A stretch of DNA of 63,625 nucleotides, counting the filler, from Rhabdomonas costata (Eukaryota): assembly GCA_019059605.1 (NCBI GenBank). It is 15 parts of 15 records of this genome, joined end to end, with 100 filler letters (N's around TTAATTAATTAA, not from the genome) between each part and the next. Parts side by side here need not be neighbours in the genome. Positions count along the whole stretch, not along the records: positions 29,754 to 33,898 come from JAHMHO010000341.1; positions 33,999 to 38,140 come from JAHMHO010000342.1; 13 more parts are not named here. One strand, given 5' to 3'. The position numbers and the translations under genes were made by a program. Below the pieces are notes generated by a model that saw only the letters and a program-made list of their open reading frames with translations, made no database searches and was not told where the DNA came from. This document shows positions 1 through 38,140 of this stretch, piece after piece (position 1 is the stretch's first letter; each line of letters begins with the position of its first letter).

Positions 1-1132
1 GTTGGGTGTGCAGTTCCTGAGGTTCGACAATAAGTGAGCGAATGGCAGGGGTTAAGTGCGAACCTCACCGTGTACCGTGTTTCACAGGGGCAAGTGTGTG
101 GTTGTGGTGTTTGATCCTGGGGCCACCTTGAATGAAGGAGGCAGGGGATGTGGTGTCCTACCAATCATGCCACTAGTCATGCCGGAAGCACCTTTGCTCG
201 GAAACTTGGAAGGCGCACGGGAAGACATGTGTATGTGTGTGGAGCGTTTTGTGAGTCTTATGAAGTGCTTTTGTGCCTGAATGGCACCAGCAGTGGTTCT
301 TAAGAATTATCAGAAAGCACTTGTGTGTGTATGTGTGTCTGTTCGATAGCAATGGGTGCGGTCTGTGCGAACGTCGGGGGACAGCCATTCCACCGCTGGA
401 AGAGAAGTGCACGTTTGGTGTACGCCCTCTCTCTCTCCCCTCCCCCACCCCCGCCCTCATTCCTGCGTGCTGTATGATCTGTGCGCTTCATTCTGTGCTT
501 GGTTTTGAGTGGTTGGTGTGTCCCTTTTGTATCATCAGCGCCCCCCACACCGGACGAACCCAGCCCAGCAACCTTTGGTCGGGCTCACCCCCCAATGGGA
601 GGGAGGGCGGTACAGCCTCACCCACTCCCTGTGGTTGTTGTTGTCGTTGTTGTCGATTTTTGTTTTTCTATTTGTGTGCGAGGAAATTTGGCTTGCATTT
701 GGGTTGCATTTGGCTTCGCTTGGGAAGAGTGGATTCTGGTGGGAGCGGGGCGTCAATTGCCAGGTATGTTCTGTGTCACGCGCAAAAGGAGAGGCGAAAA
801 AATACAGCTAAGGTCAAGAGGTTGGGTATACCCAGGAAAAATTAACGGTGTTGACATGATGCATAGGCGAGATTTTTACCATCCCTAAACCCCTAACGCT
901 TCTGAACCTTTCGCTTTTAAGACACGGGCAGTATTTTAGTTTCATTGAATTCAGGGGTGAGTAACTGTGTGCTTCTCAGGCTGCTAATTGCGACTTTTCT
1001 GAGTCATACCGAGGAACGCAAGCATCACTAAGCACTTCCCAGACCTGACCATACACCGCCTAAGCGTGGTACCCGATTGGAGGGAATTCTTTTCACTTTT
1101 TGGTTCATTTGAGGTGAGAGAATGTCCCACGC

Positions 1133-3421
1133 ATGAAAGCTTGTGCTGGATTCTTTGCATTTTCATCCAGTTTTACTGAAGTTGGACCAATTTCGCTTCT
1201 CAGATCATTTTCTATTTTTCACGGGATGTGGAGCTTTTTTGCGGACGATGACTTTACGCTGAAGTCCGCCTTCGCTGCACGCAAAGTTTTGTGCAGCCTC
1301 CCACATGGAACTGACGGCAGGCCGCCGTCAGAGCTCTCCTGCCTGAGCTTGTACCAGCGCAGGGCGTTTTACTTTTGGTGGTCCAACCGTCCAGTGTGTT
1401 CCTTTTGTGGTTACAAGACTGACCGTTGGCTGTCCTCTCCATCTTCCCTGTACATATGTGGCGTCTGCCACACCACAGTGGAGGCGGTTGATCTTCACGA
1501 AGGCGAAGACTTTCGCGAACTCGAGAACAATCCCGACGAGACAGCCATCCATCACTCCGAAATGCCTATCATTGGCACCCGCTTCCAATTTAACCCGTCC
1601 CAGCAACAGCTCGCTCTTGTGGCCAACCAAGCTGTGTCGATCTTCCAGTGTTTGGACAGTGTCGTTCCCTGCCGAATTCACGCCGACGCCTGGAGAGCAA
1701 CCATGGTGTTACTACAGATCGTAGGACTTCATACTACAGGCCCGCGGTTTTCTGTCGACCTCGGGAGCAAGGTGGAGGATGTAACTATCGTCGACGTGGA
1801 TCTTCTGTCATGCATTTTCATCGCCGTGTGCGCGCTGGACAGAGACACTCAGTGCTGGAGCAAGCTTCTTGAGATTTGCCCTGAGCTGTCGTGGCGGCGT
1901 ACACAGACCCTCAGCGAGGCTGCTCTTGGCGACCTGATACCCCCTCCGAACTGGCCCACCCTTCTCACCAATTTGCCCCGCGTCCTGGAGGCCCTGGAGG
2001 AGCTTGATGCGCTGCATGGCCTTGTCTCACGCACCGACATTGTCTCTGCTTGGAATATTTTTGTGTCGCCAGACAGGAGTCACCTTGTTTCAAGCTCTTC
2101 CTCGGTTGATTATGCACTGCACCGCTTAATGCGTGGCTCCGGTCCAGGTCCCCAGCTCTCCGACGAGCACCAGTGCAGCCATTCTTATGCCAGGTTCCGA
2201 AGGTGTCCGGAAATGGCTGAGATGGCCACAATCAGTTCTATTGCAACATTTTTGTCGGAGTGCTGGAAACTGAAAGTTTACAATGACGAATGCAGGAAGC
2301 TTTCTCCAGTCGGGCCGAAGGCCAGCATTAATCGCAAAAAACTGCTGCAAGTTCTGACCGAAGCCAAGAAGTACGTTCCATTTTGCGAAGCTCCCGAAGA
2401 CACCTTGAAACCTTTTATGGAGTTTTCAGACAGCGATGTCTCGGATGGAAAAGTGATGTACCGTTATTCTGTCGAGAGACGACACGCCATGCTTCAAGTT
2501 TATGTCCGTGTTCGTTTGGCACGTCAGCTGAGCCGGCTCGCTCGTTTCACATATGGTGCGGTTCTATTTGAAGACGAGCTCATTCGGCGGGTGCTGAGTC
2601 AAGAGTCACCTCTATTTAATGAAGTGCACGCAATGAGAACTCTGCTGCAATGCGAAGCTCCCACAGTGATAAAGGACCCCACAGCCGTTTTCGGTGTTTT
2701 GAGCTACTCCAGAGAAATAAAAATGGGTGTCCGAAAAGCCGTTCAACAGGAAAGATTGCCTGAGGCTGTGCAAGCTTTGAAACAATCCAGAAACCTCCTC
2801 ACAGTGGGCGTGCTGCGACAGCTTGTTCCAGACCCAGGGATGCTGCACCTTCTTTCGGACTGCGAGCTACGGTTTCAAATGGAGCTCTGGGACCGTCTGC
2901 TCCTTCTTTTGCTTCCCGAGCGACCCTTTATTGGGGACCGGTTAAATTTCTTCCCCCGCGAGCAGATGATCTACTCGCTTGGGCTTCAGCTTGGTGCAGT
3001 TCAAGAAAACCCCCAGTGGCTTGGGATACAGTGGAACAATGACGTGCTCCGCCTGCACGCCGCTTACTTAACCCAGCATGCCGGTGAGGTTACCTCTCGG
3101 GTTGGAGTGCAAGGTTCAGATGTGCCTGCGCTGCTTTCGAAGTCCCTGCTTCTTCAGCATGGAGCGAGTCTTTATTCTCGTGCACACCTGCTCCTGCGGC
3201 GTCTTTATCCAAGCCGATATCGCGCGCTGGAAAACGAGGCGTTGCAGGTGAAGCTTGATGTGCAGACATTTAGCGAAACAGACACAGAGAACTTGGCAAA
3301 GTTCTGCAAGGCTTCCAAAGAGATATGTGAGGGTTGTGTTGGTGAAATGGCAGACGTCGACATCGAAATCCGTGGCAACATTGCTGTTGAGAAGCCCCCC
3401 AAGAGGAGGCGCAAAGAATGA
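1133..3421 (+). CDS. Intronless 762-aa protein with a zinc ribbon, possibly TFIIB-related; C-terminal NLS-like motif
   Basis: Long ORF with CSFC...CGVC, followed by EGEDFRELENN (B-reader-like) and LLSCIFIAVC (resembles the TFIIB cyclin-fold AACLYIAC). Ends PPKRRRKE. The true start may be ATG 1226 if 1113-1170 (GTGAGA...CATCCAG) is an intron. Confidence 0.7.
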   Translation: MKACAGFFAFSSSFTEVGPISLLRSFSIFHGMWSFFADDDFTLKSAFAARKVLCSLPHGTDGRPPSELSCLSLYQRRAFYFWWSNRPVCSFCGYKTDRWLSSPSSLYICGVCHTTVEAVDLHEGEDFRELENNPDETAIHHSEMPIIGTRFQFNPSQQQLALVANQAVSIFQCLDSVVPCRIHADAWRATMVLLQIVGLHTTGPRFSVDLGSKVEDVTIVDVDLLSCIFIAVCALDRDTQCWSKLLEICPELSWRRTQTLSEAALGDLIPPPNWPTLLTNLPRVLEALEELDALHGLVSRTDIVSAWNIFVSPDRSHLVSSSSSVDYALHRLMRGSGPGPQLSDEHQCSHSYARFRRCPEMAEMATISSIATFLSECWKLKVYNDECRKLSPVGPKASINRKKLLQVLTEAKKYVPFCEAPEDTLKPFMEFSDSDVSDGKVMYRYSVERRHAMLQVYVRVRLARQLSRLARFTYGAVLFEDELIRRVLSQESPLFNEVHAMRTLLQCEAPTVIKDPTAVFGVLSYSREIKMGVRKAVQQERLPEAVQALKQSRNLLTVGVLRQLVPDPGMLHLLSDCELRFQMELWDRLLLLLLPERPFIGDRLNFFPREQMIYSLGLQLGAVQENPQWLGIQWNNDVLRLHAAYLTQHAGEVTSRVGVQGSDVPALLSKSLLLQHGASLYSRAHLLLRRLYPSRYRALENEALQVKLDVQTFSETDTENLAKFCKASKEICEGCVGEMADVDIEIRGNIAVEKPPKRRRKE

Positions 3422-4438: not shown

Positions 4439-7404
4439 AGTTGCCCTCGCCGTGTGGGATCTGCAATGGAGTATGCGACCTCGTCTCCGGGAACTGCACA
4501 TGTTCGCCCGACTGGACCGGCCCGAACTGCACCGAGCATAGTTACTGGTGCACCAGTGGCCGCACCCGCGTGTTGACCGAGAGCTCAGGAATTCTCCAGG
4601 TACCGTTTGTCGTGCGCACGGGCCACAAGATTGTAGGAATTTCTAGCTTCCTTGAAACCCGGACCGCTTGCCACTTTTTTTCAGCATTTTCTTGCCGCCA
4701 GGGAATGGGGGTGGGGGGTGCGCTCCTCGTACATTGCCACCCCCATCGTCCTCGGTTACGGTGGCGCAAGGTTTTATAAAAGTTTCTCTTCGAATCTGCT
4801 GAAAAACCTTCGCTCCCCATAAAATGGCAGTGAACCAATGCACCCGCCCCCTCTCTTGTGAAGAAGATTGAGCTGGTGTGCATCTATTTCGTTCGAAGGA
4901 GAACTGTTTGACACTTTTGGGCATATTTCTCCTTTTTCCTTTTTCCTTTCAGGTTACTGGCAGTGAACTTTACTCGAGCAACATGCAGTGCAGCTGGCTG
5001 ATAATCGGGCCCGCAGGCTCTTTGGTCACGCTCGTCTTCGGCGCCTTCTCCTCGCAGTACAACTCTGACAGGGCCACCGTGTACAACACCGCCACCCCGA
5101 ATCCCGATGCAACCCTCGCGACCTACACCGGGAACTACCCGGCGGGGATTACGGTGAGCTCCACCAGCGGCACCCTGCTGCTTATGTTCACCTCGGATGG
5201 CTCTGTGGTCAGCAGCGGATTCACGGCTCATTGGAGCATCGCAGGTACTTTTTTCTTGCGTTGACAAGATACAATCTCAACCCTGCGCAGGAGATAGGTC
5301 ACTTGTTGGACGTCGTTTGTTAAGCTGGAGTAATGATTCCACCTTCTTATAAGCCCGCCCTCGGTCTTTGTTGCTCGTGCGCCGTGCATTTACGTTCTTT
5401 TATTCGTTTGATGCTATGTCCAGTCTTTTCTTCGCAGGCACAGTGACTTGTGACAGCTTTACGTTGACCTGCCCTCCAGGGACTCACCCCGTGAGCAACA
5501 CTACTCGATGCCCGTCAGTGCCTTGCACTCAAGTCGACTGTTGCAGCCATGGTATGGTATTCGAATTGCATTTTCGGTGTGAGAGTGCCCTTGTGCGCAA
5601 GCGAGGGGTGGGGAGTCGGCGTAGGCGCATTTGTTTTTTCCGTACGGTCCGTGATGCCGTCTCGCGGCTCAGCTGCTTGAACAGGGTATGCATTTGGGGG
5701 ACTGTCTTGACAATCTGCACGGTTACTTCTTCAGCAGTGGCTTGACTGGCGAAGGAGGGTCAGGGTGCAGGTTGAGCAGACAGAAGTCGGGACTGCGTTC
5801 AGGTCGAGGAAGTTTCCGGTCGGGTTTTCCGCGGCGCTGAGCAAATGGTTCTTTTTCGTCTGAGGTGAATTGGTTTGGAGCAGCATGCGGCACTTTCATG
5901 TAGTCTGCAATTCGTGTAGTCCTCAGAGAGCCCGGGCACGTGCTGCTCTTTGGAAGGAGATTTTTACTAAATTACCGTTTCACTGCATACAAACATTCAA
6001 TGCCTTGTTCTGCTGAGCGTCCCAACCAGCGCACGATCCCTCGTCGCAGGGTCCCGTAGTGCTGTGCCCATTCTTGTTAGCCCGGAGTGGTTGCCCTTCC
6101 CTCCTCCCTTCTGAGAAGCCAGTACCCTTTCTGGTATAGAAAGCGAACAGTATCCCTAATAATAATAGCCCTGGGTCACATTGCAGCTTACCCCCTTCAA
6201 CTATTTTGCAGGGCAGGGATCCTATATTGGCCTGAGGTACTTTCCCGTTTTTTCGTGGGACATTTTTGCTTGGCTTTTAGTGTATATCTCGTTAGCCACG
6301 AGCCATTCTGCAACCTCGGCCGTTGGTTGCTGCCCTCTTCTGTCCTGTGGTTGCAGGGGGAACCGTCTTCTTTTGTTCTCTTCTTTTTGGCTCTCTCAGC
6401 CTCCGCCCCAGCGTACAACTGCAGCGCCCCAGCCCTTCCGGCCAACGTCAGCAGCCTGTGGTGCGCCTGGAGCTCAGCAGCCAACCTTAGCTACTGTACC
6501 TTTGACTGCGCCCTGGGATTCACTGGTGGAGGTGTTCTAAACTGCACGTCCAGCGGGAATTGGAGCCAGAGTGGCTCCTGCCAAGGCATACGTGTGTGTT
6601 TGCGCGCTAGGGTGGTGTGCTTCGGTTCTATATCCCAGGGTCCTTGAGCCGTCGGATGCAATTTTTCTCGGGTATAGAGACTATTCTAGCTCTTGTACAA
6701 AACATTGTGGATGCCGTCGATAAACTTTCGGAGCTGAGCAGTGCAAGGGGGGGGAGTTTATTTCCCGGGTACCGGCCTGCGGGTGCGAGGACTACGAAGC
6801 GCTGTGGAAGGCCAGGGGCGTGCTTTGGTTTTGCCCTCATACATTTATCGTGCTTTTTAATCAATCAATTCAATCACTGGTTGTGGTGTTGCCAGCGTGC
6901 TGCAGCCTTCGAATATTCGCTCGGGCAAGGTATTGTTCGCGGCCTGTAAGAAACGGTCCGTGCCTGTGCGTGTGTGGGTTGGTGGTCGCGATGGTGTGAA
7001 GGATAGCCTAAGCTTTGCACGATGGATCCACGATGGATTCAGACATTTTTGTTTGGATTTTTCCTGCTTCACTAGCACAGACTTGTCATATATTTATGCC
7101 CATCCGTGGCCCAGATGAGCCCGAGACATACAGATACATAAAGAGTATGATTGTCACCGCTCGCTGCAGTTTTGTATTCCTTCCCGAAGATCTTCCTCTG
7201 CCCCTGCCCATATGTCGGTTCGCTCAGCTGTCATCTGCCTTCCTCCCGGCCTTCCTTCGAACGCCGACACTCTGAGCTGCAACTCGGGGATGGCGCACGG
7301 GCAGAGCTGCACGTTTGGGTGCTCCCCTGGGTTCATGGGCGGGGGCTCGCTGAGCTGCTCCTCCGGGAGAACGTGGACTCAGAACGGCAGTTGCGTCGTG
7401 GCAA
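4439..7404 (+). CDS. Partial multi-exon extracellular mosaic protein: EGF - CUB - 6-Cys module - sushi/CCP - sushi/CCP
   Basis: Phase-consistent exons 4439-4599 (CNGVCDLVSGNCTCSPDWTGPNC), 4953-5244 (YSSNMQCSWLI...FTSDGSVVSSGF, CUB), 5438-5551 (6-Cys), 6400-6585 and 7228-~7404 (C..CxFxCxxGFxGxGxLxC..W..C, sushi). Acceptors are pyrimidine-rich AG sites. Confidence 0.85.
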
Positions 7405-11730: not shown

Positions 11731-14700
11731 CTTTGTCTTTTTGCTGGCCTTGTCCGCTCTTCATCCTCACCTGACCACTTCGTCACTCTTCTACGTGTTA
11801 AGCTGGATAGGACTGAGTGAAAAGCATCCTTGGAAGAGACGCTTGTCGGGCCCGTCCCGGGGTCCGCCGCTGGTTAAAGAGTCACTTATTAACTCATCAT
11901 CTTACCATTTGATCTGATCGTTGAACTATCGCTTACTTACTATTACCGTTGAAAAGACGATAGGGAACAGAACAAAGACGATAGTAACCTTTTTGTGATT
12001 TTCTTTCCCACCATTGCCTTTTCTCCAACACTCTGATGTTTTGGAATTTTGGGTGTTTTTGTATCCTCCATTAATCATTTGACATTTAGAAGGGGGGGGG
12101 GCGTGGGGACGATGTTTGCTGTAGAGGGGCCACTTTGATGTGAGACGCCCCCCCCATCCACTTCAGCTCACCGAATACGCGCTGATTGGACTGGTGCAGT
12201 GTTTTGACGCTCTCTGGCTCTTCTAAGCTCTCCGTCTTCTTTTTGTTTGCAGGTAAGAGTCCCCTGGGAACCGCCCTCTAAATGTCAGTCCGACGTGCAC
12301 CCCAGGTGCTCGCCTGCCCCAGCCCACTCCTTCCTCCCCGCTTCTCACACACGCTTGCACTAAGTCATACACCCAGAGCGAGGCCAGAGGGCGGGCTGTT
12401 TGGCCTGCTCCTGCTTCCCTTGAAGGGCCTCCTGCTCCGTCGCCTCCTCAAGTTCGAAGACCTTTTCATTTGCAAAGCGCAAATAGAGCGACACTACTGC
12501 GAGTAACCCAAAGGCGGCCCAAAGGTTGACCTGAAAGATGCAGCGAAAGTCCGGAGAGGGGAGAAATAGAAGCTGTGAGGGATGCGAAAGCGTTTCGGCC
12601 GATGTGATATGGCAACATGTTTTCCAAGAGAAGAGCAAAGCCAGCAGGAAAAAATGGACCCTNNNNNNNNNNNNNNNNNNNNNNNNNNNNNNNNNNNNNN
12701 NNNNNNTTAATTAATTAANNNNNNNNNNNNNNNNNNNNNNNNNNNNNNNNNNNNNNNNNNNNGTTGTTTGTGAATGCTGTTGTGTGTTGGGATGGATCTG
12801 ATGCCCAGGGGCTGAGGCCGCTGGTGTCGTGTAGAGGCTGAGGGCTGGCAGGGTGGCCCAATGGAAGGGGGGGGGAGTGGTATCCGTTACCAGTGGTAAC
12901 AGAAAACAGTTTTTTTTTGCTGACTTACCTTAAAACGGCGACGTAAAGTATGCCAGCATTCTCGAAATGACTAGTGACCAGTGCCCCCTAGATGATTGTT
13001 TTTGCTTAGCAGCTGAAAACTACTGCTGGCTAAGGGCTCGCCAATGGCTGGGATATGGGCGGACGAGTAGGACAGCATTAGTTTAGGGGCCGGAGCAGGC
13101 GGCTGGGGCGAAGACGTGACCTGGGGGCTCTTTTTAAATTATTCCAGTGGTCACCGTTATCACCACTCCCCCCTCCCCACTTCCATTCCACCTGCAGGGT
13201 GGGGACATCGGATGGAGAGAATGAATTTAAGAGGCTTTGGTTGGAGGGGTTTGCATGTGATATGGATGTGGGCAAAAGCTCAAAATCCAAACAATACAGT
13301 CGCAGTTTGGTTTCGTGCGGGCTATTTTCTTTTCTGAAGACAGCTTTTGTTGTGTGTTTGTCGAACACTGGGTTGCGTTCCTTACATGCTGCCTTCGCTT
13401 TCTGAAACCTCGACAGGCGAGCGAGGGAGTACCATTATACTTGAACCAAGAGCATTGAATGCATTGAATCGAAAATTCCTAGAAACTGCAGTGGTTGGGG
13501 TATCAACAACACAATCGCTAGGTACCTCTCCGCGTAAAGCTGTGTTTGCTTGTGGAGGTTTTACCTTACGCATGGTACAACACAGCATTTTCGTCTGCCG
13601 CCCACGTCTTTTTGGCCTAAAAAAGGTTCGTGACTCATACCTATCATTGACGCGCATATCACTTCTTCGCATAACTGGAAGCAGGACCACAAAATTTCAC
13701 CAGACCCTCGCATCCCTTGCACAAGTCATGGGAGTCACGCGCGAGCAGCATACGGGAGGGATTCCACCGTTCCTCCCAAGCAAACCACAGGACCGGAAGA
13801 GGAGGACCACGGGCCCACGCCCGGCGCGGAAGCTGCGGCAGAAGTAACCACCGCATTGGCAGTTATGGCGGTGAGGAAATCATCCTCAGTCTCCATCCTT
13901 TTGAAGCTCAGGCTCCGGGAAGGCAGAGGGCACCAATGGTTGGGAATGTGTGAGTGTGAGTGAGGAAGAAAAATAGAAAGCAAAGGAAAATCAAGCGGCC
14001 TGAAAGAATGAGAACAGGCAACTGGAGGCAAGCCGCAAACGCATCTGAAGGGTTTGTCTTCATACCACTGAAGGAAAGTGACGTCAAGTTTCTCTTTTGC
14101 CATCTTTTGCACGTCCGCATCTCGTAAAGAAACGCTGGGTGCACCCGACATTGCTTTCATATGGCGCTTTTTTTTACCTAGGTTTACCTTGGTGCCTACA
14201 CTTTTACGAAAATGAGAACCACCAGTGCTACTTTTGCTGTTTAACGGTGGTAAAGGTTTAACAGGGTTGTTCCTCACAGTCACTTTCTCAGCACGGGGTT
14301 GGGATAACTGTGCCTGTACTCACCAGATGATACTATTTTAGCGAAAGGGGGTTAGATTTACTGTTCTACTGCCCCTTAGATGCCGATTTTTTTTAAGCTT
14401 CGACAGTTTAACGGTGTTAAACGTTTAACGTTCGCCCCCTTCAATACAACAGCCCCTCTTTTTCTTTTGGTGAATACTCTCTTGCGGCACGATATCAGGT
14501 TGATTCGAGGCAACGTCTGGTAGAGAGGATGAGAAGTAATGGACATTGAGGTGTGGGTACCGTTCCTTGGGTGAGCGGAAGCGGAGCGGACGATTGATTT
14601 CCTTCCCCACCACCCATCGCCCCCAATGCCGCAAGGCCTTATAAGGTCAATGGCAACACTTCCAGCGAAAGTGTTGTGATGTGATCACAAGAGGAATTTA

Positions 14701-16508
14701 ACACAAAAAAGAAAAGCTAGGATGAATTGGGGTGGAAGATACAGAAACCTGAGGCTGAGAAGCACAGGTGAGAAGTACGACTGGACATCGGGGCATCGGG
14801 GTCCAACACAAAGAGCATCACAACAGAGAGAGAAAGAGAGAGAGGTTACCCACGTGCTCACGTCTGCACAACGGGAAGTGGGGGACAACGCACAACTTGG
14901 AGAATGCCGGAGACACACGCACCCACAAGGAATTGACAAACGAAAAAAAGCAGTATACAAATTCCAGCCCCCCCAAAAGAACGCAAGCAAAAGGCGGCGA
15001 ATGCGTAGAACGGTGGTGATGGTTGAGAGGTGGGGACCAGAACAACAACAACAAACAAATGCAAGAGGTGTGAAGTGAAGTGCAGTTCCTTTCGCGGTTA
15101 CAGAGCTTTCCCATCAAAAACCAGCGACTGAAATATATCAGCTCCCGTTGTTCACCGGTCTACCGCTCCCATTAAAGCATGGTGTGGTTGCGGACTTACC
15201 CGCACGGCATGCCGCGGAGATTATGGGGCCCCCCACCCCACCCCAACAACGAGCGAGTCATTACATTAACCCTTTGGAGAGGTTATATCGAAGCATATGC
15301 GACAGGTAAACGAGGGGGGGCATGCTTCATAACGGAATATTAGGCGTAACGCCGTTGCACTCGTTTAACTTTTAACTGAGCTGGCCACGCTCGCGCAGCA
15401 CGGGTTGAGGAACGAAAAACGCGCACATGTCTTTGCGATTGTCCTCATTCGTTGGACACAAGAATAAAGTGTGATCATCGGCATTTGCGTGCTTGGGTTT
15501 GGCGGACGAGTGGAATACGTTTATTGCAGGAGCGGAGGCCAGCGCCGCGACTACAAAAAGCCACCCATTTTTGAACATAAGTAGTATACCCCCTGTGGTC
15601 CACTGAGGTGTCTGGGAATCTAGCTGGCTATCTCAACCACCTCCCGCAGAGCTACCCATTTCAAGGATATCCTTAAGTTTTTTTTTGATCAGTTACTTGA
15701 GATAAGGACGGATTGGGGCGGAATGAAAAGGGATGAACATCAAGGGAGCGGGTCAGCAAACACAAGAGAGGACTTGACGAACGAGGGGCCACCGGAGCGG
15801 GCAGGAGGCCCGCATCGGCAGCCGTTGGTGGGGGTTGGCGGATTCTCACAGAGCTTGGGCGGAAACGGGGGCGGAAGTACGGAAGATGGAACGCACGGTG
15901 GGGATCTTGAAGTCCAAGTGGATCACGTTCTGGGCATAGCCCCCCCACCCCCCAAAGGGTGAAGCCCGTCCAAAACCAGGGAACATAGCCATGTAAACCC
16001 CTGCACCGCAGCTATTCAAATTGTGGCCGATAGTTGCCACGAAGTCCTGAAGTTCCGGATGGGACAAAGCAGAGAAATTATCAGCCCGGCGACCACGCGG
16101 TAACAGGGGCATTCACACATTCACTCACTCAAGCTCCATCTCCATCTCTGTAAGTCTTGGTGGGTAAGATTAATAAGTGTCATATTTAGCTGCAGTCTCA
16201 TGTCATCAGGCCTTCCCCACCTGCATCAATGCGTTGCTTTCGCACCTTCACTGTGTGCTGAAATAGTGTTTTCCACTTTTGTTGAGACTGCTTCTCCCTC
16301 CTCCCTTCTCTCCTTCCGAGCAATGGCCGCAGGTCACCTCACGCGATCCAATTGAAATACAGAAGCCAGGGTAATCAGTAACGGCTACCACTGGTTACCA
16401 GTGGTGGTGCGGAGATTTAGTATTTGACTCGAACTGCAACCACTGCGAAAGCCATGAGAACCATGCATTAAAAAGTTCGTCCAAAGGCCCCCAGACCCCC
16501 CGCCGCAC

Positions 16509-25514: not shown

Positions 25515-28500
25515 GGGCGGGGGTTCCTCAGACCTGGAGGCACGATGTTTGTTGTGCGTTCCGCCCGTGCTAAGGCGATCTTCTTTCTCAGCGCATTTGT
25601 CGAGGAACTGGAATGCCTTCTGCCACCGACGGTGTTTTCGATTCGGGACGCACTTCCCGTTTCCATCCTGCGAATGATGGAAATCCAGGGCTCTGTGATG
25701 CTTCTGGAGGACTCTGACCCGTCGCGGAGCGTGGAGCAGTCTCGTGTGGGCTCAGGTAGAGTTCCTTCCCGGTGCAATTCGGTAACTTCGAAGTTGTTTC
25801 TACAGCGTAAGCTGCATTTTTTATTTGAGCCACTTCGGGCCACCCATGTTGTGGTACATGCCACTGCTGACCGTGAGCATCAAGAGGTTCCATACGAGCT
25901 GCAGTCTCGGGTACTTGAAAAGCTTCGGGTTTCTGGCACTGAGAAGGAGAAAATCCCCACAGAAGTTGTGCTGTCATCTGGGGGCACGGGGAAGACCTCA
26001 ACGGCTTTACTGATTCAAGACAGGCTCCTCGACCCAAATGCAGGTTTTGGCTCCATTGCTTGCATTTTTCTGTCGCTGCCTTTGGCAGGAACGAATCTGC
26101 ATGATTGCAATGGCATGGCTCGTTTCTTTGAGACGACCATGAACTTGACTGCTGAAGACTTTGATAATGCCGAAGAGAAGAGTATAGTGATGATCTGTGA
26201 CTCTTGGGATGAGGTTCAGCCAGATGTAGGTCGCGTCGAAGCCTTGCGAAGAATGATTTTAACACGCCAGGAGTGTGTTACCCGGTACAAACTTGAGGCC
26301 AATTTTCATGCTGAAATACTGGGTCGAAAGAAAGGAGAAGAGCTCGTCCAAAAGGTTTTGGACATTCCTGAACTTCGCGAACTCATTGCGACTCCAGTTT
26401 TGGCCACAATGCTCTGCACCGCTGGTGACAGTGTGCTTCAGGAGCTCCGGAAACAGCGGCGACAGGCTCTGAATTGCGGTGAGATTTATCGTATTGTACT
26501 CGAAGCCCAGTCAACGCGTGAGCTCAAGCAGCGTCTGGGGGAAGAGCCAGAAATTACGAAAGGCCTCTTTGTTATCAAAACCTCGTGCCAGGAAATTGCT
26601 TTACAGATGTGCGCGACGCAGACGACTCATTTGCCTATGTTTAATGTGAGGTCAGTTTTCTTGCGCCACCTTCGTTTGTGCGCTAGTGTGTTCACGGGCA
26701 TACATGCAATGGAGGCCCCCGAGTCGTCCGAGGAAAAAGATTTCGTTGATACCCTGCTTTACAGTTCTCCGCTGCGGATGGGTCGTCTCCGAGAACCTGA
26801 AGCCCTCGTCTCGTTTTCTCATCTCAGCCTTCAGGAATTCTTTGCAGCCCAGCTCCTTGTCGTCCACCCATCGATAGTGGGCCATGAAGTTTACGTCTGT
26901 CGACTGGACTTGCGCGGTCTTCCCGCCTTGCGAGCCTTTGTGTGTGATCTGCTGGTGCACCGTCCGATGCAGGAACAACAGCGTTGGGTAGGACTCATGC
27001 GTGATGCTGTTGAGGCTACTCGGGGTGACCCGCACCACAAGACCAGTGAAGGGACTCTAGAAAGCCTTTGGAACTCTGAAGAAGGGGGCCCGCGGTGCCG
27101 CGCCGCAGCTAACGCAATGACCTTGATTGCCGCAGTGAATCACACTATCCAAGGCTGGGACCTTTCAAGGTGTCGCTTCCCTGGGGCCTTCTTGGACGGT
27201 CTGCAGGTTATTCATAGCAATTGGCGTGGTATTGATGCTCGGCATTGCATTTGGACACGGCCGCGGCTTGTCGATGTGGACCTGAGGGATGCATCGCTTG
27301 AGCAGGCTATTTGTGGGGAGGAGCCCCCCCTACTGGGGCACAGTGCCCCAGTGGAAGCGGTTGTGGCGACACCAGACGGAATGCATCTTGTAAGCGGTAG
27401 TAGCGACAATACGATCAAGGTTTGGAATCTGCATACCGGAAAGGAGGAGCGGTGCCTCACCGGACACCGTGGGTCTGTTTTGGCTGTCGTGATAACACCC
27501 GATGGAATGCATCTTGTGAGCGGGAGTAATGACAACTCGATCAAGGTGTGGAACATCCACACTGGGGAAGAGGAGAGGAGCCTGACTGGGCATGGCGGCG
27601 GAGTCATTGCCGTATTGGCGACTCCTGATGGAACTCGTCTTGTGAGCGGGAGCAGCGATAAAACCATCAAAATCTGGAATTTCCAGACAGGCAGGGTGGA
27701 ACGCAGTCTCACTGGCCACACGGGTCCTGTTCGATCACTTGCTCTGTTACCGGATGGGGCTGGTTTGGTGAGCGGAGGTAAAGATAATACCATCAGAGTC
27801 TGGAATATGCAGACTGGACAGGAAGAAAGGTGTCTCGTTGGGCATAGCAGTGGGGTATATACCGTAATAGTGACTCTTGATGGGATGCGCCTTATAAGCG
27901 GAAGCTATGACAGCACAATCAGAGTTTGGAATCTCCAGACTGGAAAAGAGGAGAGAATTATTACTGGGCATGCGCGTCCAGTTACCTCCTTGTCGATCAT
28001 GCCTGATGGGGCGCGTTTTGTGAGCGGAAGTACCGACAATACGGTAAAGGTGTGGAACTTGCAAACCTGGAAGGAAGAGCGCAGCTTGAGCGGACATAGT
28101 GGGTCTGTTATGTCCGTCACGGTTACCCCCGACGGGATGCGCATTGTCAGCGGAAGCTACGACAATACAGTGAAAGTGTGGAATTTGCAGGCCGGAAAGG
28201 GAGAGCGAAGCCTTCCAGGACACATTGGCGCTGTTCATGCTCTTGCAGTCATTTCGAAGTCGGATGAAACACGATTAGTCAGCGGAAGTGCGGACAATAC
28301 CATCATATTGTGGGATTTGAAACTGGGAAAGATGGAGCGCATCCTTAAGGGCCACAACGCCACGGTCTACTGTGTTTCTGTTACTCCAGACGGGACGCGC
28401 CTTGTCAGCGGAAGTGGAGACAACACCATCAGAGTGTGGGATCTTCGTACGGGGGAAGAGCTACGCAGCCTCAATGGCCACAAAGGCTATGTACATACAG

Positions 28501-29180
28501 TTTCGGTGACACCCGATGGGTTGTGGGTTGTCAGCGGAAGCAGCGATAAGTCAATCAAGCTTTGGGCTCTACGCACAGGAAAGGAAGAACGCTGCCTAGT
28601 CGGTCACCGGAGTTCCGTCTTTGCTGTGGTGATTACTCCCGACTGCAAACATATTGTCAGTGGAAGTGGAGACAAATCTATCAGAGTTTGGGAGTGGCAT
28701 AGCGGGAAAAACGTTTGCACTTTTTCAGGTCACCGCTCTTCTGTTCTCACCTTAGCCATGGTTCCCGATGGGATGCATGTTGTGAGCGGAGGTGAGGACT
28801 TTACAATTAAGGTTTGGAATCTGCAGCGTGGAAATGAAGTGCACAGCTTTTATGGCCACCGTGGCCGCATCAGTGCTTTGGCTGTGACTTGCCATGGATC
28901 GCACCTTGTCAGCGGAAGCTGGGACAACACGCTCAGGGTGTGGAATTTGCAAGATAGTAAACCAATCGACCTCCATGACCATGACCGTGGCTGTTCTCTT
29001 GATTGCAGTGCGGCGGGTAAGTTACGCAACGATGCCCACGACTTCCCTGCAGCGTCCCTTTCCCATCGCCCAGGTTGTTGTCAGCTTATTTTGGGCTACT
29101 TTTCCCCAATTGTTGAGGACGTCCTGCTCTCGTCTGATGCTTTTGCACCTTCCCTACTTCGGCATCAATCTGGCAATTAA
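25515..29180 (+). CDS. NLR-like STAND protein: NACHT NTPase - pentapeptide-like linker - 13 WD40 repeats (5' truncated)
   Basis: Walker A SSGGTGKTS, Walker B MICDSWDE, TPVLATM, winged-helix FSHLSLQEFFAA, AAANAMTL followed by DLSRC..DLRDASLEQA, then 13 GH...SGSxDxTIKVW repeats of about 42 aa. The frame is open back to the contig start; first ATG at 25545. Confidence 0.93.
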   Translation, partial: GRGFLRPGGTMFVVRSARAKAIFFLSAFVEELECLLPPTVFSIRDALPVSILRMMEIQGSVMLLEDSDPSRSVEQSRVGSGRVPSRCNSVTSKLFLQRKLHFLFEPLRATHVVVHATADREHQEVPYELQSRVLEKLRVSGTEKEKIPTEVVLSSGGTGKTSTALLIQDRLLDPNAGFGSIACIFLSLPLAGTNLHDCNGMARFFETTMNLTAEDFDNAEEKSIVMICDSWDEVQPDVGRVEALRRMILTRQECVTRYKLEANFHAEILGRKKGEELVQKVLDIPELRELIATPVLATMLCTAGDSVLQELRKQRRQALNCGEIYRIVLEAQSTRELKQRLGEEPEITKGLFVIKTSCQEIALQMCATQTTHLPMFNVRSVFLRHLRLCASVFTGIHAMEAPESSEEKDFVDTLLYSSPLRMGRLREPEALVSFSHLSLQEFFAAQLLVVHPSIVGHEVYVCRLDLRGLPALRAFVCDLLVHRPMQEQQRWVGLMRDAVEATRGDPHHKTSEGTLESLWNSEEGGPRCRAAANAMTLIAAVNHTIQGWDLSRCRFPGAFLDGLQVIHSNWRGIDARHCIWTRPRLVDVDLRDASLEQAICGEEPPLLGHSAPVEAVVATPDGMHLVSGSSDNTIKVWNLHTGKEERCLTGHRGSVLAVVITPDGMHLVSGSNDNSIKVWNIHTGEEERSLTGHGGGVIAVLATPDGTRLVSGSSDKTIKIWNFQTGRVERSLTGHTGPVRSLALLPDGAGLVSGGKDNTIRVWNMQTGQEERCLVGHSSGVYTVIVTLDGMRLISGSYDSTIRVWNLQTGKEERIITGHARPVTSLSIMPDGARFVSGSTDNTVKVWNLQTWKEERSLSGHSGSVMSVTVTPDGMRIVSGSYDNTVKVWNLQAGKGERSLPGHIGAVHALAVISKSDETRLVSGSADNTIILWDLKLGKMERILKGHNATVYCVSVTPDGTRLVSGSGDNTIRVWDLRTGEELRSLNGHKGYVHTVSVTPDGLWVVSGSSDKSIKLWALRTGKEERCLVGHRSSVFAVVITPDCKHIVSGSGDKSIRVWEWHSGKNVCTFSGHRSSVLTLAMVPDGMHVVSGGEDFTIKVWNLQRGNEVHSFYGHRGRISALAVTCHGSHLVSGSWDNTLRVWNLQDSKPIDLHDHDRGCSLDCSAAGKLRNDAHDFPAASLSHRPGCCQLILGYFSPIVEDVLLSSDAFAPSLLRHQSGN

Positions 29181-33878: not shown

Positions 33879-34136
33879 CTAGAGAGTGTACCCAAACCNN
33901 NNNNNNNNNNNNNNNNNNNNNNNNNNNNNNNNNNNNNNNNNNTTAATTAATTAANNNNNNNNNNNNNNNNNNNNNNNNNNNNNNNNNNNNNNNNNNNNTA
34001 TTCACACTTCGCTCCCACCATTCTTGTACATCTTAGGCATGCGTTCCCGAAGCGAATCCTCCGACTTCACCCATGCGGCAAACGGCACCACTCGCACACC
34101 CACCACCACAACACCCACCATCGACATGCACCCACC

Positions 34137-36170
34137 ATGCACATTCTTGCTCTCCAGGTCACAGCTTCAGGTCTTCCTTTGGGAGCAAAAGCATGCAACA
34201 CCTGCGCCATCAGCAAAGAAGCCAATCTCCCAGATGTTATTGTGGTCCAGCTCAGATCACACGTCAAGCGTGAGTTCGAGGTTCCCTATGTTCTGGGCAA
34301 CGGATACGAAATCTGCTCGATGTGCTTCTCCAGGAGCGCTGGTGCCTTCTCAGGATGGGCAACGCTGCAGCAAAGCAGAACAATGGCGGGAGAAAAGTGC
34401 TGGTTTCAGTGCCATCAGAATTACGTGGATGAAATTGGACAGCACCTCCCTCGCATTACACTCGACAAAGGAAGTCAGGCGATTTTGATATATTCTGATC
34501 CAACTTCCCACCCAGCACCAAGGGATAGCAAGCTGCGCCATATTCCTGAGCACGACAACTCCGACGACGACTCCTCTGACTCTTCCTCTGATGCTGCCGA
34601 CATGGACGACAACTACTCACACAAACAGGACTTGGCTGATGCCTCACTTTACAGTTCGTTGGCTCCCCCAAATGACGACGAGGAAGACGAGAGCAATCCC
34701 GCACCCGTGAGGTCAGAAATTGTGGAATATGAAATTCCTGGAAGAAAGGAAGGACTCCACATTCTCCTGTCATCTCTGGCAGAAGTCAACATGAATCCCA
34801 AGGGCCTCAGCAACTGGGTGAGGAATTTTACATCCTCCGTTACCTCCAGACTTCCCCAAGTTCCAGATGTCACTCAATACCTCGAAGCCTATCTATTCAC
34901 GGGTCACTTCCCCTTGAAAAGCCTAGGCCACTTCCCAGGCTGCATGCCGCTTTACCTCTACTCATCAAGAAATGCACCCCGAAACCCGTTTGTTCGCTTT
35001 CACGACTATGTTAAGCAGGTCATCTGTGATGCAGAGGGCACCAGAGGGGCTGACTCGAGCTGGATTGGCTATGCCTTCAACGTGATGCTAGCCCAGATTG
35101 CTGACCGTGGACCCTCGCTGACGGTGGTAAAAAAAGGCCTTGAGAGCGCCCTCAGGAACAAATTCTCACAAAAAGAGTATGCTGAAAGGTTCGGGGATGC
35201 CATATTGCCAAATATGCTATATGATGCCGCAGAAGCCAAGAGGCATGTCGACGAGCTTTGCGCTGCCATTGCTGCCATCGGAATTCCAACATACTTTCTC
35301 ACCCTGTCCTGCAACCAAACCAGATTTCCAGGAGTATCCATCATCCACGATGCCATGAAGAAATCGGACGGTGACCCCATGGCCTTCGCTGCTTTTCTTC
35401 AGCGTACATGGCACAGAGTAATCACGCTCTTCCTCAAGTGGTTGCAGCATGGAGATGAGAAGCCGCTGGGCAACGTGCGTCATGTTTGGGCTCGACACGA
35501 GTTCCAAACTGATGTAGGAAATCTGAGCCACGTTCACCTGTTTGTATGGACAGACGAGAATGTCGGCGACCCTTCTCTAACCTCGTTCTCTGAACACTGC
35601 GCTCTGGCCTTGAGCAGGATTACGGCAACCATCCTTGGAGCCTTCGACGAAGAGCCTAATTCTGCTGAACTGGAATCTCTGGCGCGAGACATTCAGGTGC
35701 ATAAGTGCAATGCGAAATGTACCCTCAATGGTTACTGCCGATTTGGTGCACCTTGGCCAGAGTGTGACGCACCAGAGGCTGTGCAGATGAAAGTTGAAAT
35801 TCCACCGGAGCTACAACGTACACTCCTGCGCTGCAATTTGGCAACCCAGGAGGCAGGTAAATTCATATTATCTCCAGTTCTCACGGGAATTAAGCACTGT
35901 CCTCCGCGCGGTGTTGGATGCAACAGGGTCAGCATTTTTTGCCCAAAGATTTTCGCGGTGACCCAATCCCACCTCAACATTCAGGTGTGCAACGGAAGGT
36001 TTGTGCTGGCATACCTTGTCAAGTACTGCGCCGAGGAGGAGGAACGCTGCGTGGTGTCGCTCAGAAAGTGTTCGGAGACCTCGTGCACCGCAGAGATCAG
36101 TGATCTGAAGAAACGGAAAAGGAGATTATTGCCAACTCCTTCGGACAACTCTCATGGCTCCGTTATTTAG
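34137..36170 (+). CDS. Helitron Rep (HUH/Y2 endonuclease) part
   Basis: Motif I PTYFLTLSCN, motif II RHEFQTDVGNLSHVHLFVW, QVHKCNAKC...CRFGAP, motif III YLVKY. N-terminal CxxC...CxxC. Confidence 0.9.
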   Translation: MHILALQVTASGLPLGAKACNTCAISKEANLPDVIVVQLRSHVKREFEVPYVLGNGYEICSMCFSRSAGAFSGWATLQQSRTMAGEKCWFQCHQNYVDEIGQHLPRITLDKGSQAILIYSDPTSHPAPRDSKLRHIPEHDNSDDDSSDSSSDAADMDDNYSHKQDLADASLYSSLAPPNDDEEDESNPAPVRSEIVEYEIPGRKEGLHILLSSLAEVNMNPKGLSNWVRNFTSSVTSRLPQVPDVTQYLEAYLFTGHFPLKSLGHFPGCMPLYLYSSRNAPRNPFVRFHDYVKQVICDAEGTRGADSSWIGYAFNVMLAQIADRGPSLTVVKKGLESALRNKFSQKEYAERFGDAILPNMLYDAAEAKRHVDELCAAIAAIGIPTYFLTLSCNQTRFPGVSIIHDAMKKSDGDPMAFAAFLQRTWHRVITLFLKWLQHGDEKPLGNVRHVWARHEFQTDVGNLSHVHLFVWTDENVGDPSLTSFSEHCALALSRITATILGAFDEEPNSAELESLARDIQVHKCNAKCTLNGYCRFGAPWPECDAPEAVQMKVEIPPELQRTLLRCNLATQEAGKFILSPVLTGIKHCPPRGVGCNRVSIFCPKIFAVTQSHLNIQVCNGRFVLAYLVKYCAEEEERCVVSLRKCSETSCTAEISDLKKRKRRLLPTPSDNSHGSVI

Positions 36171-36179
36171 GTCACGGAA

Positions 36180-38140
36180 ATGCTCTTCCATTGCTTAGCT
36201 CTACCGTCCATCTACACCACCTTTGACTCTGTCCACGTCAACACGGGACCAAGCGAGACCCGCTTCGTGACCTTAAAGCCGAGGTGGAAGCCAGGTGCAG
36301 ATTTTGGAGCACGACAACCGGAAGACCCATCCCGGTGCGGAGCAGAGGAAACCGAGAATGGTGGCTATGCCCCCCTCCATCCGACCAGAGAGCCTCACCC
36401 TGATCAAGAACTGTCCATGGGGGAGCTCAGGTGTCAGCGCACAAACGCGGATTCCGTCATGAAATACTGTCTGAGACCACCGGAGCTCTATCATTTCAAG
36501 TTGGACCACTACTACGCTCTCACGATTCCCAGCAACCCTCCAAGATACTCCAGAGACACATGGCGAGTGGAAAACTGGATTGCAAATGGGCTATATGACC
36601 TGCAGGGAAAGCGCATTTATCTCCGTCCAGCAATCGCAGGCTTTCCAACGCTGATTTCGACAATGTTCGACCTTCTTGAAGGCCGTCACCTCGTCGAAGA
36701 GTTTATGCAGTGCTTCCAGAAGGCACCACCTGCAGGACACTGGTTCTACAACCTTGTGGACATAAATGCGAAGTACGCAGTTGTTGTCCATCCGCGTTTC
36801 ACTCCAAGCCAGCCCTGCAATTGGTGGATACAGAAAGCACTGCGCTCCGTGCCATTCGGGAATGAAGGCATCCTGCTTCGAGACCATCTTCCCAGGGTGA
36901 TGAACGAGTTCTCGTCCACACAGGAACTCGTAAGATCGTTTGTCCTGTCCGAGTTGCGGTACTGGCCGATTGGATATCGACTGTTGTTCACCACCATTCA
37001 AAACATCTGGAATGCAGCACAAAGTCCTGAGTTTGCGACCTTCAGCTGGGCATGCTGCGAGGATGAAATCTCTGAAAAGTTTGCTGATTCCTGGAAGGAG
37101 TACAATGAACTCCGGCTTGCTCGGCACGAACAGATGCTACGTCACGTTCCAAACTTTGAAAAACAACCTTCGCAGTCGGTAGCCAGCTGGAACGAGCAGG
37201 TTCAGGCATGGAATGCGATTGAGGCACGGTTTGCACCGCTTGCAAGGGAGCCCCTTTCGTTGGATATGGCACCCTACGTCGCGCCCCTTTACATCTCCGG
37301 GCCCCCTGGAAGTGGAAAGACGTTTCTTCTACTCTCCTTTGCCCGTGCCCTGTCGACAATGCAGTTTCCCGTTAGCTGGGAGATCACTGCTTTATCTGCG
37401 AATGGGGCCTGTGAGCTCGGCGGCGTCCACATCCACCAGCTATTTGGGTTTCGAGTAAAAAGAATCGGGAAGATTGCAACAGCTGCTTCCCTTGCAGCTG
37501 CGGCATACGCAAGGCTCGGACGGCAGCCACTCAGGCGGCGAATCCTTCAAGAAATGCGCGTGCTCATCGTGGACGAATTTTGTCACGTGGGTGCCGTTTT
37601 GCTGAGTGCAATGGACATTTTGCTCCGGAAGGTTAGGCAGTGCAACAAACCGTTTGGTGGCCTTGCTATTTTGGCATGCGGGGATCACTACCAGACGGAG
37701 GCGATTGGGGAGCCCTGTCCTCTTCTCTCTGCTCTTGTCCGATTCCACTTCTCCAGCATCGTGCTCCAGACAATGTACAGAGCAAGAACGGACGAAGATC
37801 TTCAGCGGCTCATTTCGATGATGCGAAAGCCTGTCCTCGCCAAATCGGAGAGCGACCTCATCATTCACATCTTGGAAAGCAGATGCAGGTTCTGCTCCAG
37901 CGTACATATGGTGCCTCCTTCAGCAACCTGGCTTTTGTCCAAAACTGTCGCCGTTGAAGCCGCTCGACATAGGAAATTCACAGATGCTGTGCAGCCCAAG
38001 ACCGCTTTCCACGCTGAAGATTTCTTTCTGGACTGTGGATCCTGGAAAAGCGGGCCACCTTCATGGTGCTCACGAACTTTGGACAAGCAGAGTGGTCTTT
38101 CCTCAACGGTATCAGCCATTACCAACGAACCCAAAAACCC
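36180..38140 (+). CDS. Helitron Pif1-family SF1 helicase part (3' truncated)
   Basis: GPPGSGKT, ELGGVHIHQLF, LIVDEF, KPFGGLAILACGDHYQ, LQTMYRA. Confidence 0.92.

Follow-up and report, generated by a model that had tools for sequence, protein, structure and literature searches.

To which lineage of rolling-circle transposons does a Rep–helicase (RepHel) frame with a non-canonical HUH motif belong? The frame fills one contig (JAHMHO010000342.1) of a 63,625-nt stretch of Rhabdomonas costata DNA (GCA_019059605.1), hereafter the window, which comprises 15 contigs of around 4.1–4.2 kb joined by artificial N44-TTAATTAATTAA-N44 linkers. A preliminary description, made from the sequence, had taken it for a divergent Helitron-like element of a separate, poorly described lineage. 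Our reading, to which we give a probability of roughly 75%, is that the contig holds an inner part of a damaged copy of a eukaryotic rolling-circle transposon, from a RepHel lineage that ranks as the third major one next to HLE1 (Helitron) and HLE2 (Helentron/Helitron2). The window copy serves only as a pointer to this family, of which intact natural copies exist, such as that at locus L045.

An altered motif II in a family of RepHel proteins

A single forward frame runs through the contig from 34002 to 38138 (1,379 codons), and its sole stop is an in-frame TAG at 36168–36170. The parts of this frame that define the element are the following.

33999–38140 (no strand assigned): whole contig with the internal element fragment, flanked on both sides by the artificial linkers; no terminal repeats and no blastn match to other window contigs
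34002–36167 (+): RepHel frame up to the stop (Rep half), 722 codons running in from the contig start; Pfam Helitron_like_N, E 4e-9
35289–35315 (+): Rep motif I, TYFLTLSCN, aligned across the family, HLE1, HLE2 and phage Reps
35499–35537 (+): Rep motif II (HUH), EFQTDVGNLSHVH, with E500, H510 and H512 and a seven-residue loop without Arg-Gly
36012–36026 (+): Rep motif III, YLVKY, with two catalytic tyrosines (Y671 and Y675), matching YxxKY of HLE1 in the alignment, with conservation of the first Tyr at 90% or more
36171–38138 (+): long linker between Rep and helicase, then the N-terminal half of Pif1; 656 codons that run off the contig end; Pfam PIF1, E 1.7e-11
37299–37322 (+): Walker A, GPPGSGKT
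37563–37580 (+): Walker B
37680–37706 (+): helicase motif III, GDHYQTEAI, a subclade marker, GDHYQ being common to P0004, P0005, P0011, P0016 and P0068

The ordered Rep motifs I–III and Pif1 helicase of the preliminary description are borne out by this one frame and by both Pfam matches. Motif II departs from the published consensus, (V/I)ExQxRG(S/L)(P/L)HxH, which has five residues from Q to the first H, as given in PMC4067079. In the window, seven residues separate Q from the first H, so that the motif is indeed non-canonical and lacks the Arg, but has two extra residues rather than the one extra residue first counted. All 62 aligned sequences keep the Glu and the two His, and the two first-found relatives (40–41% identity) read EFQTDVGNLSHLH and EWQTDSPNFNHWH. 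Across 105 aligned family rows the loop has seven residues in 70, nine in 27 and 8–13 in eight; the canonical five-residue xRG loop occurs in none of the 105, and Gly-Asn in 83. Among 120 HLE2 proteins gathered without a motif filter, by comparison, the motif was found in 112, every one of which has a five-residue loop. We considered decay of motif II in one copy and rejected it, because the altered loop is family-wide. On these alignments, the altered motif II is a mark of the lineage; our guess is that the loop Gly-Asn may stand in for the DNA contact of the lost Arg.

Spacing sets the family apart as well: the median distance from motif II to motif III is 177 amino acids (aa) in the family versus 136 aa in HLE1, and that from Rep motif III to Walker A is 499 aa in the family, 314 in HLE2 and 352 in HLE1. 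The window helicase finds its best Protein Data Bank (PDB) sequence matches in cellular Pif1 (E 5e-16). Its motif III reads as first described, but GDHYQ[TN]E belongs only to a local subclade, and elsewhere in the family the motif is GDxxQL or MDxxQ.

The family was gathered with a profile of three sequences (the window protein and two relatives) searched against 1.84 billion cluster representatives, which returned 851 clusters at E ≤ 0.001, 370 at 1e-10 and 115 at 1e-30; the best 150 of the 851 were examined, and the tail may include HLE1 and HLE2. Word-index protein searches gave two relatives each, and it took the full profile search to bring up the family. With a DNA pattern for the family motif II, at least 121 stretches were marked in metagenome contigs, most of them family open reading frames (ORFs), several of 2,100–2,970 aa; L040, L048, L075 and L078 were set aside as chance hits of the pattern, and L104 is a duplicate of L103. 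Among 22 clusters looked up, one carried an organism name, that of the hagfish Myxine glutinosa, and the Atlas clusters with Helitron_like_N were eukaryote-dominated ones only. The earlier placement of the lineage "in a protist" is thus too narrow, as the family takes in hagfish proteins and many metagenome contigs.

Fold and phylogeny

To place the family we compared both structure and sequence. An AlphaFold2 model of the window Rep (34737–36167), built on a 62-sequence alignment, reached a mean predicted local distance difference test (pLDDT) score of 78.7. Its best match is the Helraiser structure 7LCC (Z 15.1, root mean square deviation (rmsd) 5.0, 256 residues aligned, 14% identity; Foldseek E 5.7e-5), with the next match at Z 5.8. 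A PDB sequence search with the Rep profile missed Helraiser, which the fold search alone found. The family Rep has the Helitron fold.

For the trees, HLE1 references were viral and genome contigs chosen by canonical-motif pattern, HLE2 references came from a search with a DUF6570-bearing protein and represent mostly one sponge-type subgroup with a few UCH-bearing members, and phage Reps, the closest outgroup proteins, served as outgroup. Family rows were thinned by identity ahead of each tree, and three of nine prokaryotic helicase loci lacked a usable row. The Rep tree was computed from 102 rows and 281 columns under LG+G4, with a bootstrap that had not fully settled; PH_L007 and M_L074 were dropped for poor alignment. 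In it, the 51 family rows form one clade with support of 99/96, beside HLE1 (98/95), HLE2 (100/99) and an HLE1+HLE2 grouping (95/75). A mixture-model Rep tree (51 rows, loop columns removed) keeps the family at 93/90 and HLE1+HLE2 at 95/87, and the helicase tree (66 rows) recovers the family at 100/99. The window family lies outside 20 HLE1 Reps, seven HLE1 helicases and the 18 sampled HLE2, and its nesting within the sponge-type HLE2 subgroup is rejected by the approximately unbiased (AU) test (p-AU 0.018). The separate Rep and Pif1 phylogenies that the preliminary description had proposed thus place the family outside sampled HLE1 and HLE2, with HLE2 drawn mostly from one subgroup. Rep and helicase trees together support a single clade outside both samples.

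A side result concerns the bacterial genome bins searched (L159–L196), where HLE1 Rep frames account for about 18 of 38 matches and sit mostly on short contigs. These frames are probably eukaryotic contamination and could mislead claims of prokaryotic Helitrons.

Domain architecture of intact relatives

Full-length relatives are single proteins of about 2,100–3,200 aa. Among 20 long relatives, Pfam placed a GIY-YIG domain at the C terminus of 14, a UCH domain in one and an OTU domain in one, whereas the Helentron AP endonuclease had no Pfam match in these 20 (the window C terminus itself is missing). The Pfam Rep signal is weak, being absent at E 0.001 in nine of the 20. A GIY-YIG profile built from the 14 Pfam-positive proteins was positive in 51 of the 54 family proteins that extend 170 residues or more beyond helicase motif V (the seeds counted among the 54), versus none of 72 HLE1/HLE2 proteins (0/70 HLE2, 0/2 HLE1). 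In 18 aligned GIY-YIG domains from metagenome loci, Tyr, Tyr, Gly, Arg, His and Glu are invariant (18/18). Its best matches are five sequences of SLX1, at E 3e-12 to 7e-10, with UPF0213 following at 4e-7; unlike SLX1, the domain is fused to a transposase, the match spans the nuclease domain alone and the activity is predicted.

Some loci carry a conserved accessory ORF that has no Pfam match and is modelled as two tandem OB domains. Foldseek ranks RPA first for this model (E 3e-4), and VIA-align ranks MCM10, Teb1 and RPA highest (top Z 7.9, rmsd 3.5, 106 residues aligned). No accessory RPA-like ORF was found in the window.

Six loci (L049, L064, L090, L091, L099 and L114) have GT-AG intron candidates at shared RepHel ORF positions, at about residues 1710, 2262, 2362 and 2605 of the L088 ORF. 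Because these candidates are shared within a six-locus subclade, intronlessness is not family-wide. Beside the family ORFs of L059, L049 and L065 lie a SET domain, a 3′–5′ exonuclease and a UCH domain, possibly captured cargo or host genes.

Element ends and mobility

Evidence for mobility comes from loci L045 and L054, which share about 11.8 kb in two blocks (95.8% and 99.3% identity) with sharp divergence on both sides. Their flanks differ and encode WD40, PPR, GH47 and DEAD-box proteins; one family is inserted at two different eukaryotic loci. The shared stretch starts with CT(C/G)GTTAGAC and ends with GTGCTACTGGT. At this one pair of ends we saw no TC start, CTRR end, insertion between A and T, terminal inverted repeat, T-T target or strong hairpin. 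The termini may carry a direct repeat in the five-base CT(C/G)GT...CTGGT, or this may be a target word; with one pair it is a lead only. Three further sets of loci (L042/L046/L073/L115, L085/L086 and L074/L088) gave no clean shared termini.

Several repeats were seen near family ORFs. In L076, a 177-bp direct repeat (93% identity; 5515–5691 and 14235–14408 in ORF orientation) brackets the RepHel ORF, which could make it a left end in tandem or a long terminal repeat. Long hairpins lie 3′ of the ORF in L106 (6056–6110, stem of about 26 bp) and L117 (6262–6306, about 21 bp), both in ORF orientation, and are possible termination signals. A fold-back insert of about 190 bp, resembling a miniature inverted-repeat transposable element, is present in L054 at about 14713–14903 and missing from L045.

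The same loci bear on whether family members are transposons at all, as they might instead be extrachromosomal rolling-circle replicons or viruses. Many family metagenome contigs measure 9–13 kb, about one element length, and the nearest outgroup Reps are from phages, as such replicons would have it. Against this, circular terminal overlap was seen in none of the 121 loci listed, IMG/VR viral contigs yielded neither a family motif II match nor a family relative, L045 and L054 lie amid eukaryotic genes, one subclade has the GT-AG intron candidates and relatives sit on contigs of up to 4.1 Mb. We regard a replicon or viral identity as highly improbable.

Placement relative to HLE1 and HLE2

A set of results weighs against a third major lineage. 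The AU tests reject neither family+HLE2 (Rep 0.34, helicase 0.40) nor family+HLE1 (0.25), and HLE1+HLE2 is also kept on the helicase (p 0.43), so that these tests are compatible with any branching order among the family, HLE1 and HLE2. Family support falls to 93/90, unstarred, with the mixture model. The HLE2 sample of 18 is thin and excludes AP-endonuclease Helentrons, proto-Helentron and Helitron2, and the groupings are partly built in, as HLE1 and phage Reps were picked by canonical motif and the family by query profile. An aromatic-x-Arg just before motif II (WARHE in the window) links the family to HLE2, occurring in 93 of 105 family rows and 111 of 112 HLE2 but in none of 20 HLE1. Both the GIY-YIG nuclease and the RPA-like part lie outside this window (the nuclease beyond the contig end); with a mean pLDDT of 57.6 the RPA-like model is weak, and its ORF occurs in just 10 of 28 loci of at least 9 kb. 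Mobility rests on one pair of loci, with no empty site seen.

These points give room to the view that the family is a fast-evolving HLE2 offshoot, or one of the unclassified clusters of HELIANO; the Sphagnum family HelenSM92 might also be a relative. HELIANO (Li et al. 2024, PMC11417382) reports two named clades, at least four unnamed clusters and unclassified elements in 19 genomes, as well as the capture of a GIY-YIG domain by HelenSM92. The aromatic-x-Arg, the OTU and UCH domains and the C-terminal nuclease are all HLE2-like, and the AU test does not reject family+HLE2. However, DUF6570, the HLE2 marker of HELIANO, had no Pfam match in the window, nor in any of 20 relatives, and a profile of the DUF6570-bearing region upstream in HLE2 matched 100 of 120 HLE2 proteins and none of 192 family rows. 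The best Rep trees unite HLE1 with HLE2 and leave the family outside, neither inverted repeats nor a T-T target was seen at the one pair of ends, and HelenSM92 is marked as ordinary HLE2 by its inverted repeats and TT sites (PMC11417382). We consider either identity, HLE2 offshoot or HELIANO cluster, doubtful, and prefer a lineage beside HLE1 and HLE2.

A third lineage would still have much in common with both. Like HLE1, represented by Helraiser 7LCC, the family fuses a Y2 HUH Rep of the same fold to a Pif1 helicase, with YxxKY at motif III and TxN at motif I, and HLE1 also has an RPA gene in some lineages. It differs from HLE1 in the low identity to 7LCC, the loop of 7–13 residues without Arg-Gly, the separate clade and the C-terminal GIY-YIG, and TC...CTRR was not seen in one pair of family ends. 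With HLE2 it shares, besides the aromatic-x-Arg and the occasional OTU or UCH domain, a nuclease fused at the helicase C terminus and a separate RPA-like ORF (PMC4067079, PMC11417382). Here the differences are the nuclease itself (SLX1-like GIY-YIG versus AP endonuclease), the lack of DUF6570, the longer motif II loop, the lack in one family pair of short terminal inverted repeats or a T-T target, and the position outside the sampled HLE2 clade.

Two other groups invite comparison. The Paramecium HLE clade (Arnaiz et al. 2026, PMC13085455) is likewise a third clade outside HLE1 and HLE2, with 9–10 kb ORFs and from a protist, but its motifs EFQERGSIHFH, EWQERGSIHYH and EFQDRGSVHFH (three variants, by eye) keep the five-residue Arg-Gly loop. 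Identity of the two lineages is not supported by the canonical loop of these three variants; the comparison is by motif only, with clade B copies and Paramecium tree rows not included. Replitrons (Craig 2023, PMC10288648) resemble the family as eukaryotic HUH transposons of algae and protists that were long overlooked through an unusual motif II, and in having short direct repeats at their ends, as the family possibly does too. They have a Y1 Rep with HUQ and no helicase, whereas the family is Y2, HUH and helicase-fused with a Helitron-like fold.

In the literature searched, which covered few subscription papers and not Repbase, no RepHel clade with such a motif or a fused GIY-YIG is described, and the available parts of PMC8788227, PMC3627910 and PMC6431247 describe no such group. 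The RepHel family is apparently undescribed, the unclassified clusters of HELIANO being compared by description only. With a family-wide motif, one clade in Rep and helicase trees and no literature description found, the proposal of a separate, poorly described rolling-circle lineage holds up. The weak Pfam Rep signal and non-standard ends would explain why the family was missed, and a further large clade would change a Helitron scheme that now rests on two clades and the 2026 Paramecium clade.

Proposed transposition mechanism

Intact family proteins begin with variable N-terminal domains, in some UCH- or OTU-like, continue with a Y2 HUH Rep whose motif II loop is extended and a Pif1 helicase, and end in an SLX1-like GIY-YIG nuclease; some members have a separate RPA-like gene too. 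In the model for Helitrons, Tyr nicking and strand displacement are followed by a second-Tyr circle and joining at a new site (PMC6213432). By analogy, the Rep would cut one strand, with the metal held by Glu and two His and a covalent link formed via Tyr; Pif1 would unwind the strand 5′ to 3′, the second Tyr would close a circle, and the circle would be joined into a new site while the RPA-like protein coats the single strand.

For the extra nuclease, Thomas et al. (2014) proposed a target-step role in the case of the Helentron AP endonuclease (PMC4067079). On our hypothesis, the GIY-YIG domain would comparably nick or trim branched DNA, either at the target or once the strand has been transferred. 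SLX1 has a preference for flaps and forks. As a second, independent nuclease fusion at the RepHel C terminus, the GIY-YIG domain would make the role of an extra nuclease in rolling-circle transposition testable. A bolder version, which we put forward as tentative and do not favour, is that the family is an ancient, eukaryote-wide RepHel class that split off before HLE1 and HLE2 parted, with CT(C/G)GT...CTGGT ends of its own and an SLX1-like nuclease that opens or resolves branched target DNA (forks, flaps). If true, it would mean a new integration route for rolling-circle transposons, overlooked by current Helitron annotators.

State and origin of the window copy

Four further features of the frame concern the state of the copy and its Rep.

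34179–34442 (+): possible degenerate C-terminal half of a UCH/USP-like domain (residues 60–147), a weak lead at E 0.01 against a four-sequence profile of close relatives
34554–34592 (+): acidic Asp/Ser linker ahead of Rep, read in translation
35700–35744 (+): His/Cys cluster (H-x-C-x3-C...C-R), with H322, C328 and C334 (alignment A5 numbering) at least 90% conserved
36168–36170 (+): in-frame TAG breaking the window copy

The His/Cys cluster is, from its conservation, a probable zinc site. One close relative of the window protein, P0016, has a Pfam UCH match at E 1e-20. The closest full-length relative, P0004 (2,663 aa), aligns colinearly over its residues 1073–2364 with window residues 157–1366 at 36% identity; against it, the window protein is short by roughly 900 residues in front and about 300 behind, its helicase ending after motif IV. 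Because of this colinearity, no intron is needed over residues 157–1366, which upholds an intronless frame there, although the frame is broken by a TAG that the preliminary description did not mention. As the region is a whole contig between artificial linkers, both element ends and the genomic context are missing; the Rep and Pif1 domains of the span first called an element are real, but the span is an internal fragment with its termini outside. Scans for tRNA and Rfam families gave no match, and repeats within the contig are at chance level only.

Could the window copy nevertheless be functional, its TAG read through or a sequencing error? The TAG is the sole stop in 1,379 codons, those catalytic motifs that are present are intact, and the contig ends look like products of random-primed amplification. 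In the TAG column, however, 110 other aligned rows have small residues, S (53), A (21), G (19) or else P, T, C or N, and never Tyr or Gln, so that the TAG is a nonsense change or error rather than recoding. Elsewhere in the window, frames free of stops extend over about 1,220, 767 and 610 codons without pointing to a reassigned nuclear TAG, a reading supported on neither count. Because of the TAG, a full protein is impossible from the window copy unless that base is an error, and we judge a functional copy unlikely: what the window holds is an inner fragment of an element that is dead or was damaged in sequencing. Where many relatives have Arg (xERA), helicase motif Ia (37386–37424, +) has TALSANGA, which might be another mark of decay.

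It is quite unlikely, in our estimate, that the element contig came from a contaminant or from prey. The contig has a dinucleotide distance of 91, the largest of 14 contigs (others 29–74), and no physical link joins it to the others; yet its GC content (0.524), CpG ratio and codon-position GC are like those of neighbour contigs, and its tetranucleotide correlation (0.24) lies inside their range (0.15–0.50).

Other window contigs encode TPR, WD40, LRR, EGF and CUB domains, which fits a eukaryote. By blastn, no window contig matches another. Most window contigs have a G/T-rich start and a C/A-rich end, the pattern that random-primed whole-genome amplification would leave. The frame at 25518–29180 (+), free of stops for about 1,220 codons, has many WD40 repeats besides a P-loop-like motif and a pentapeptide-like stretch, and resembles a NACHT-WD40 protein. 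A 767-codon frame at 1118–3421 (+) contains a Cys-x2-Cys pair and has no Pfam match.

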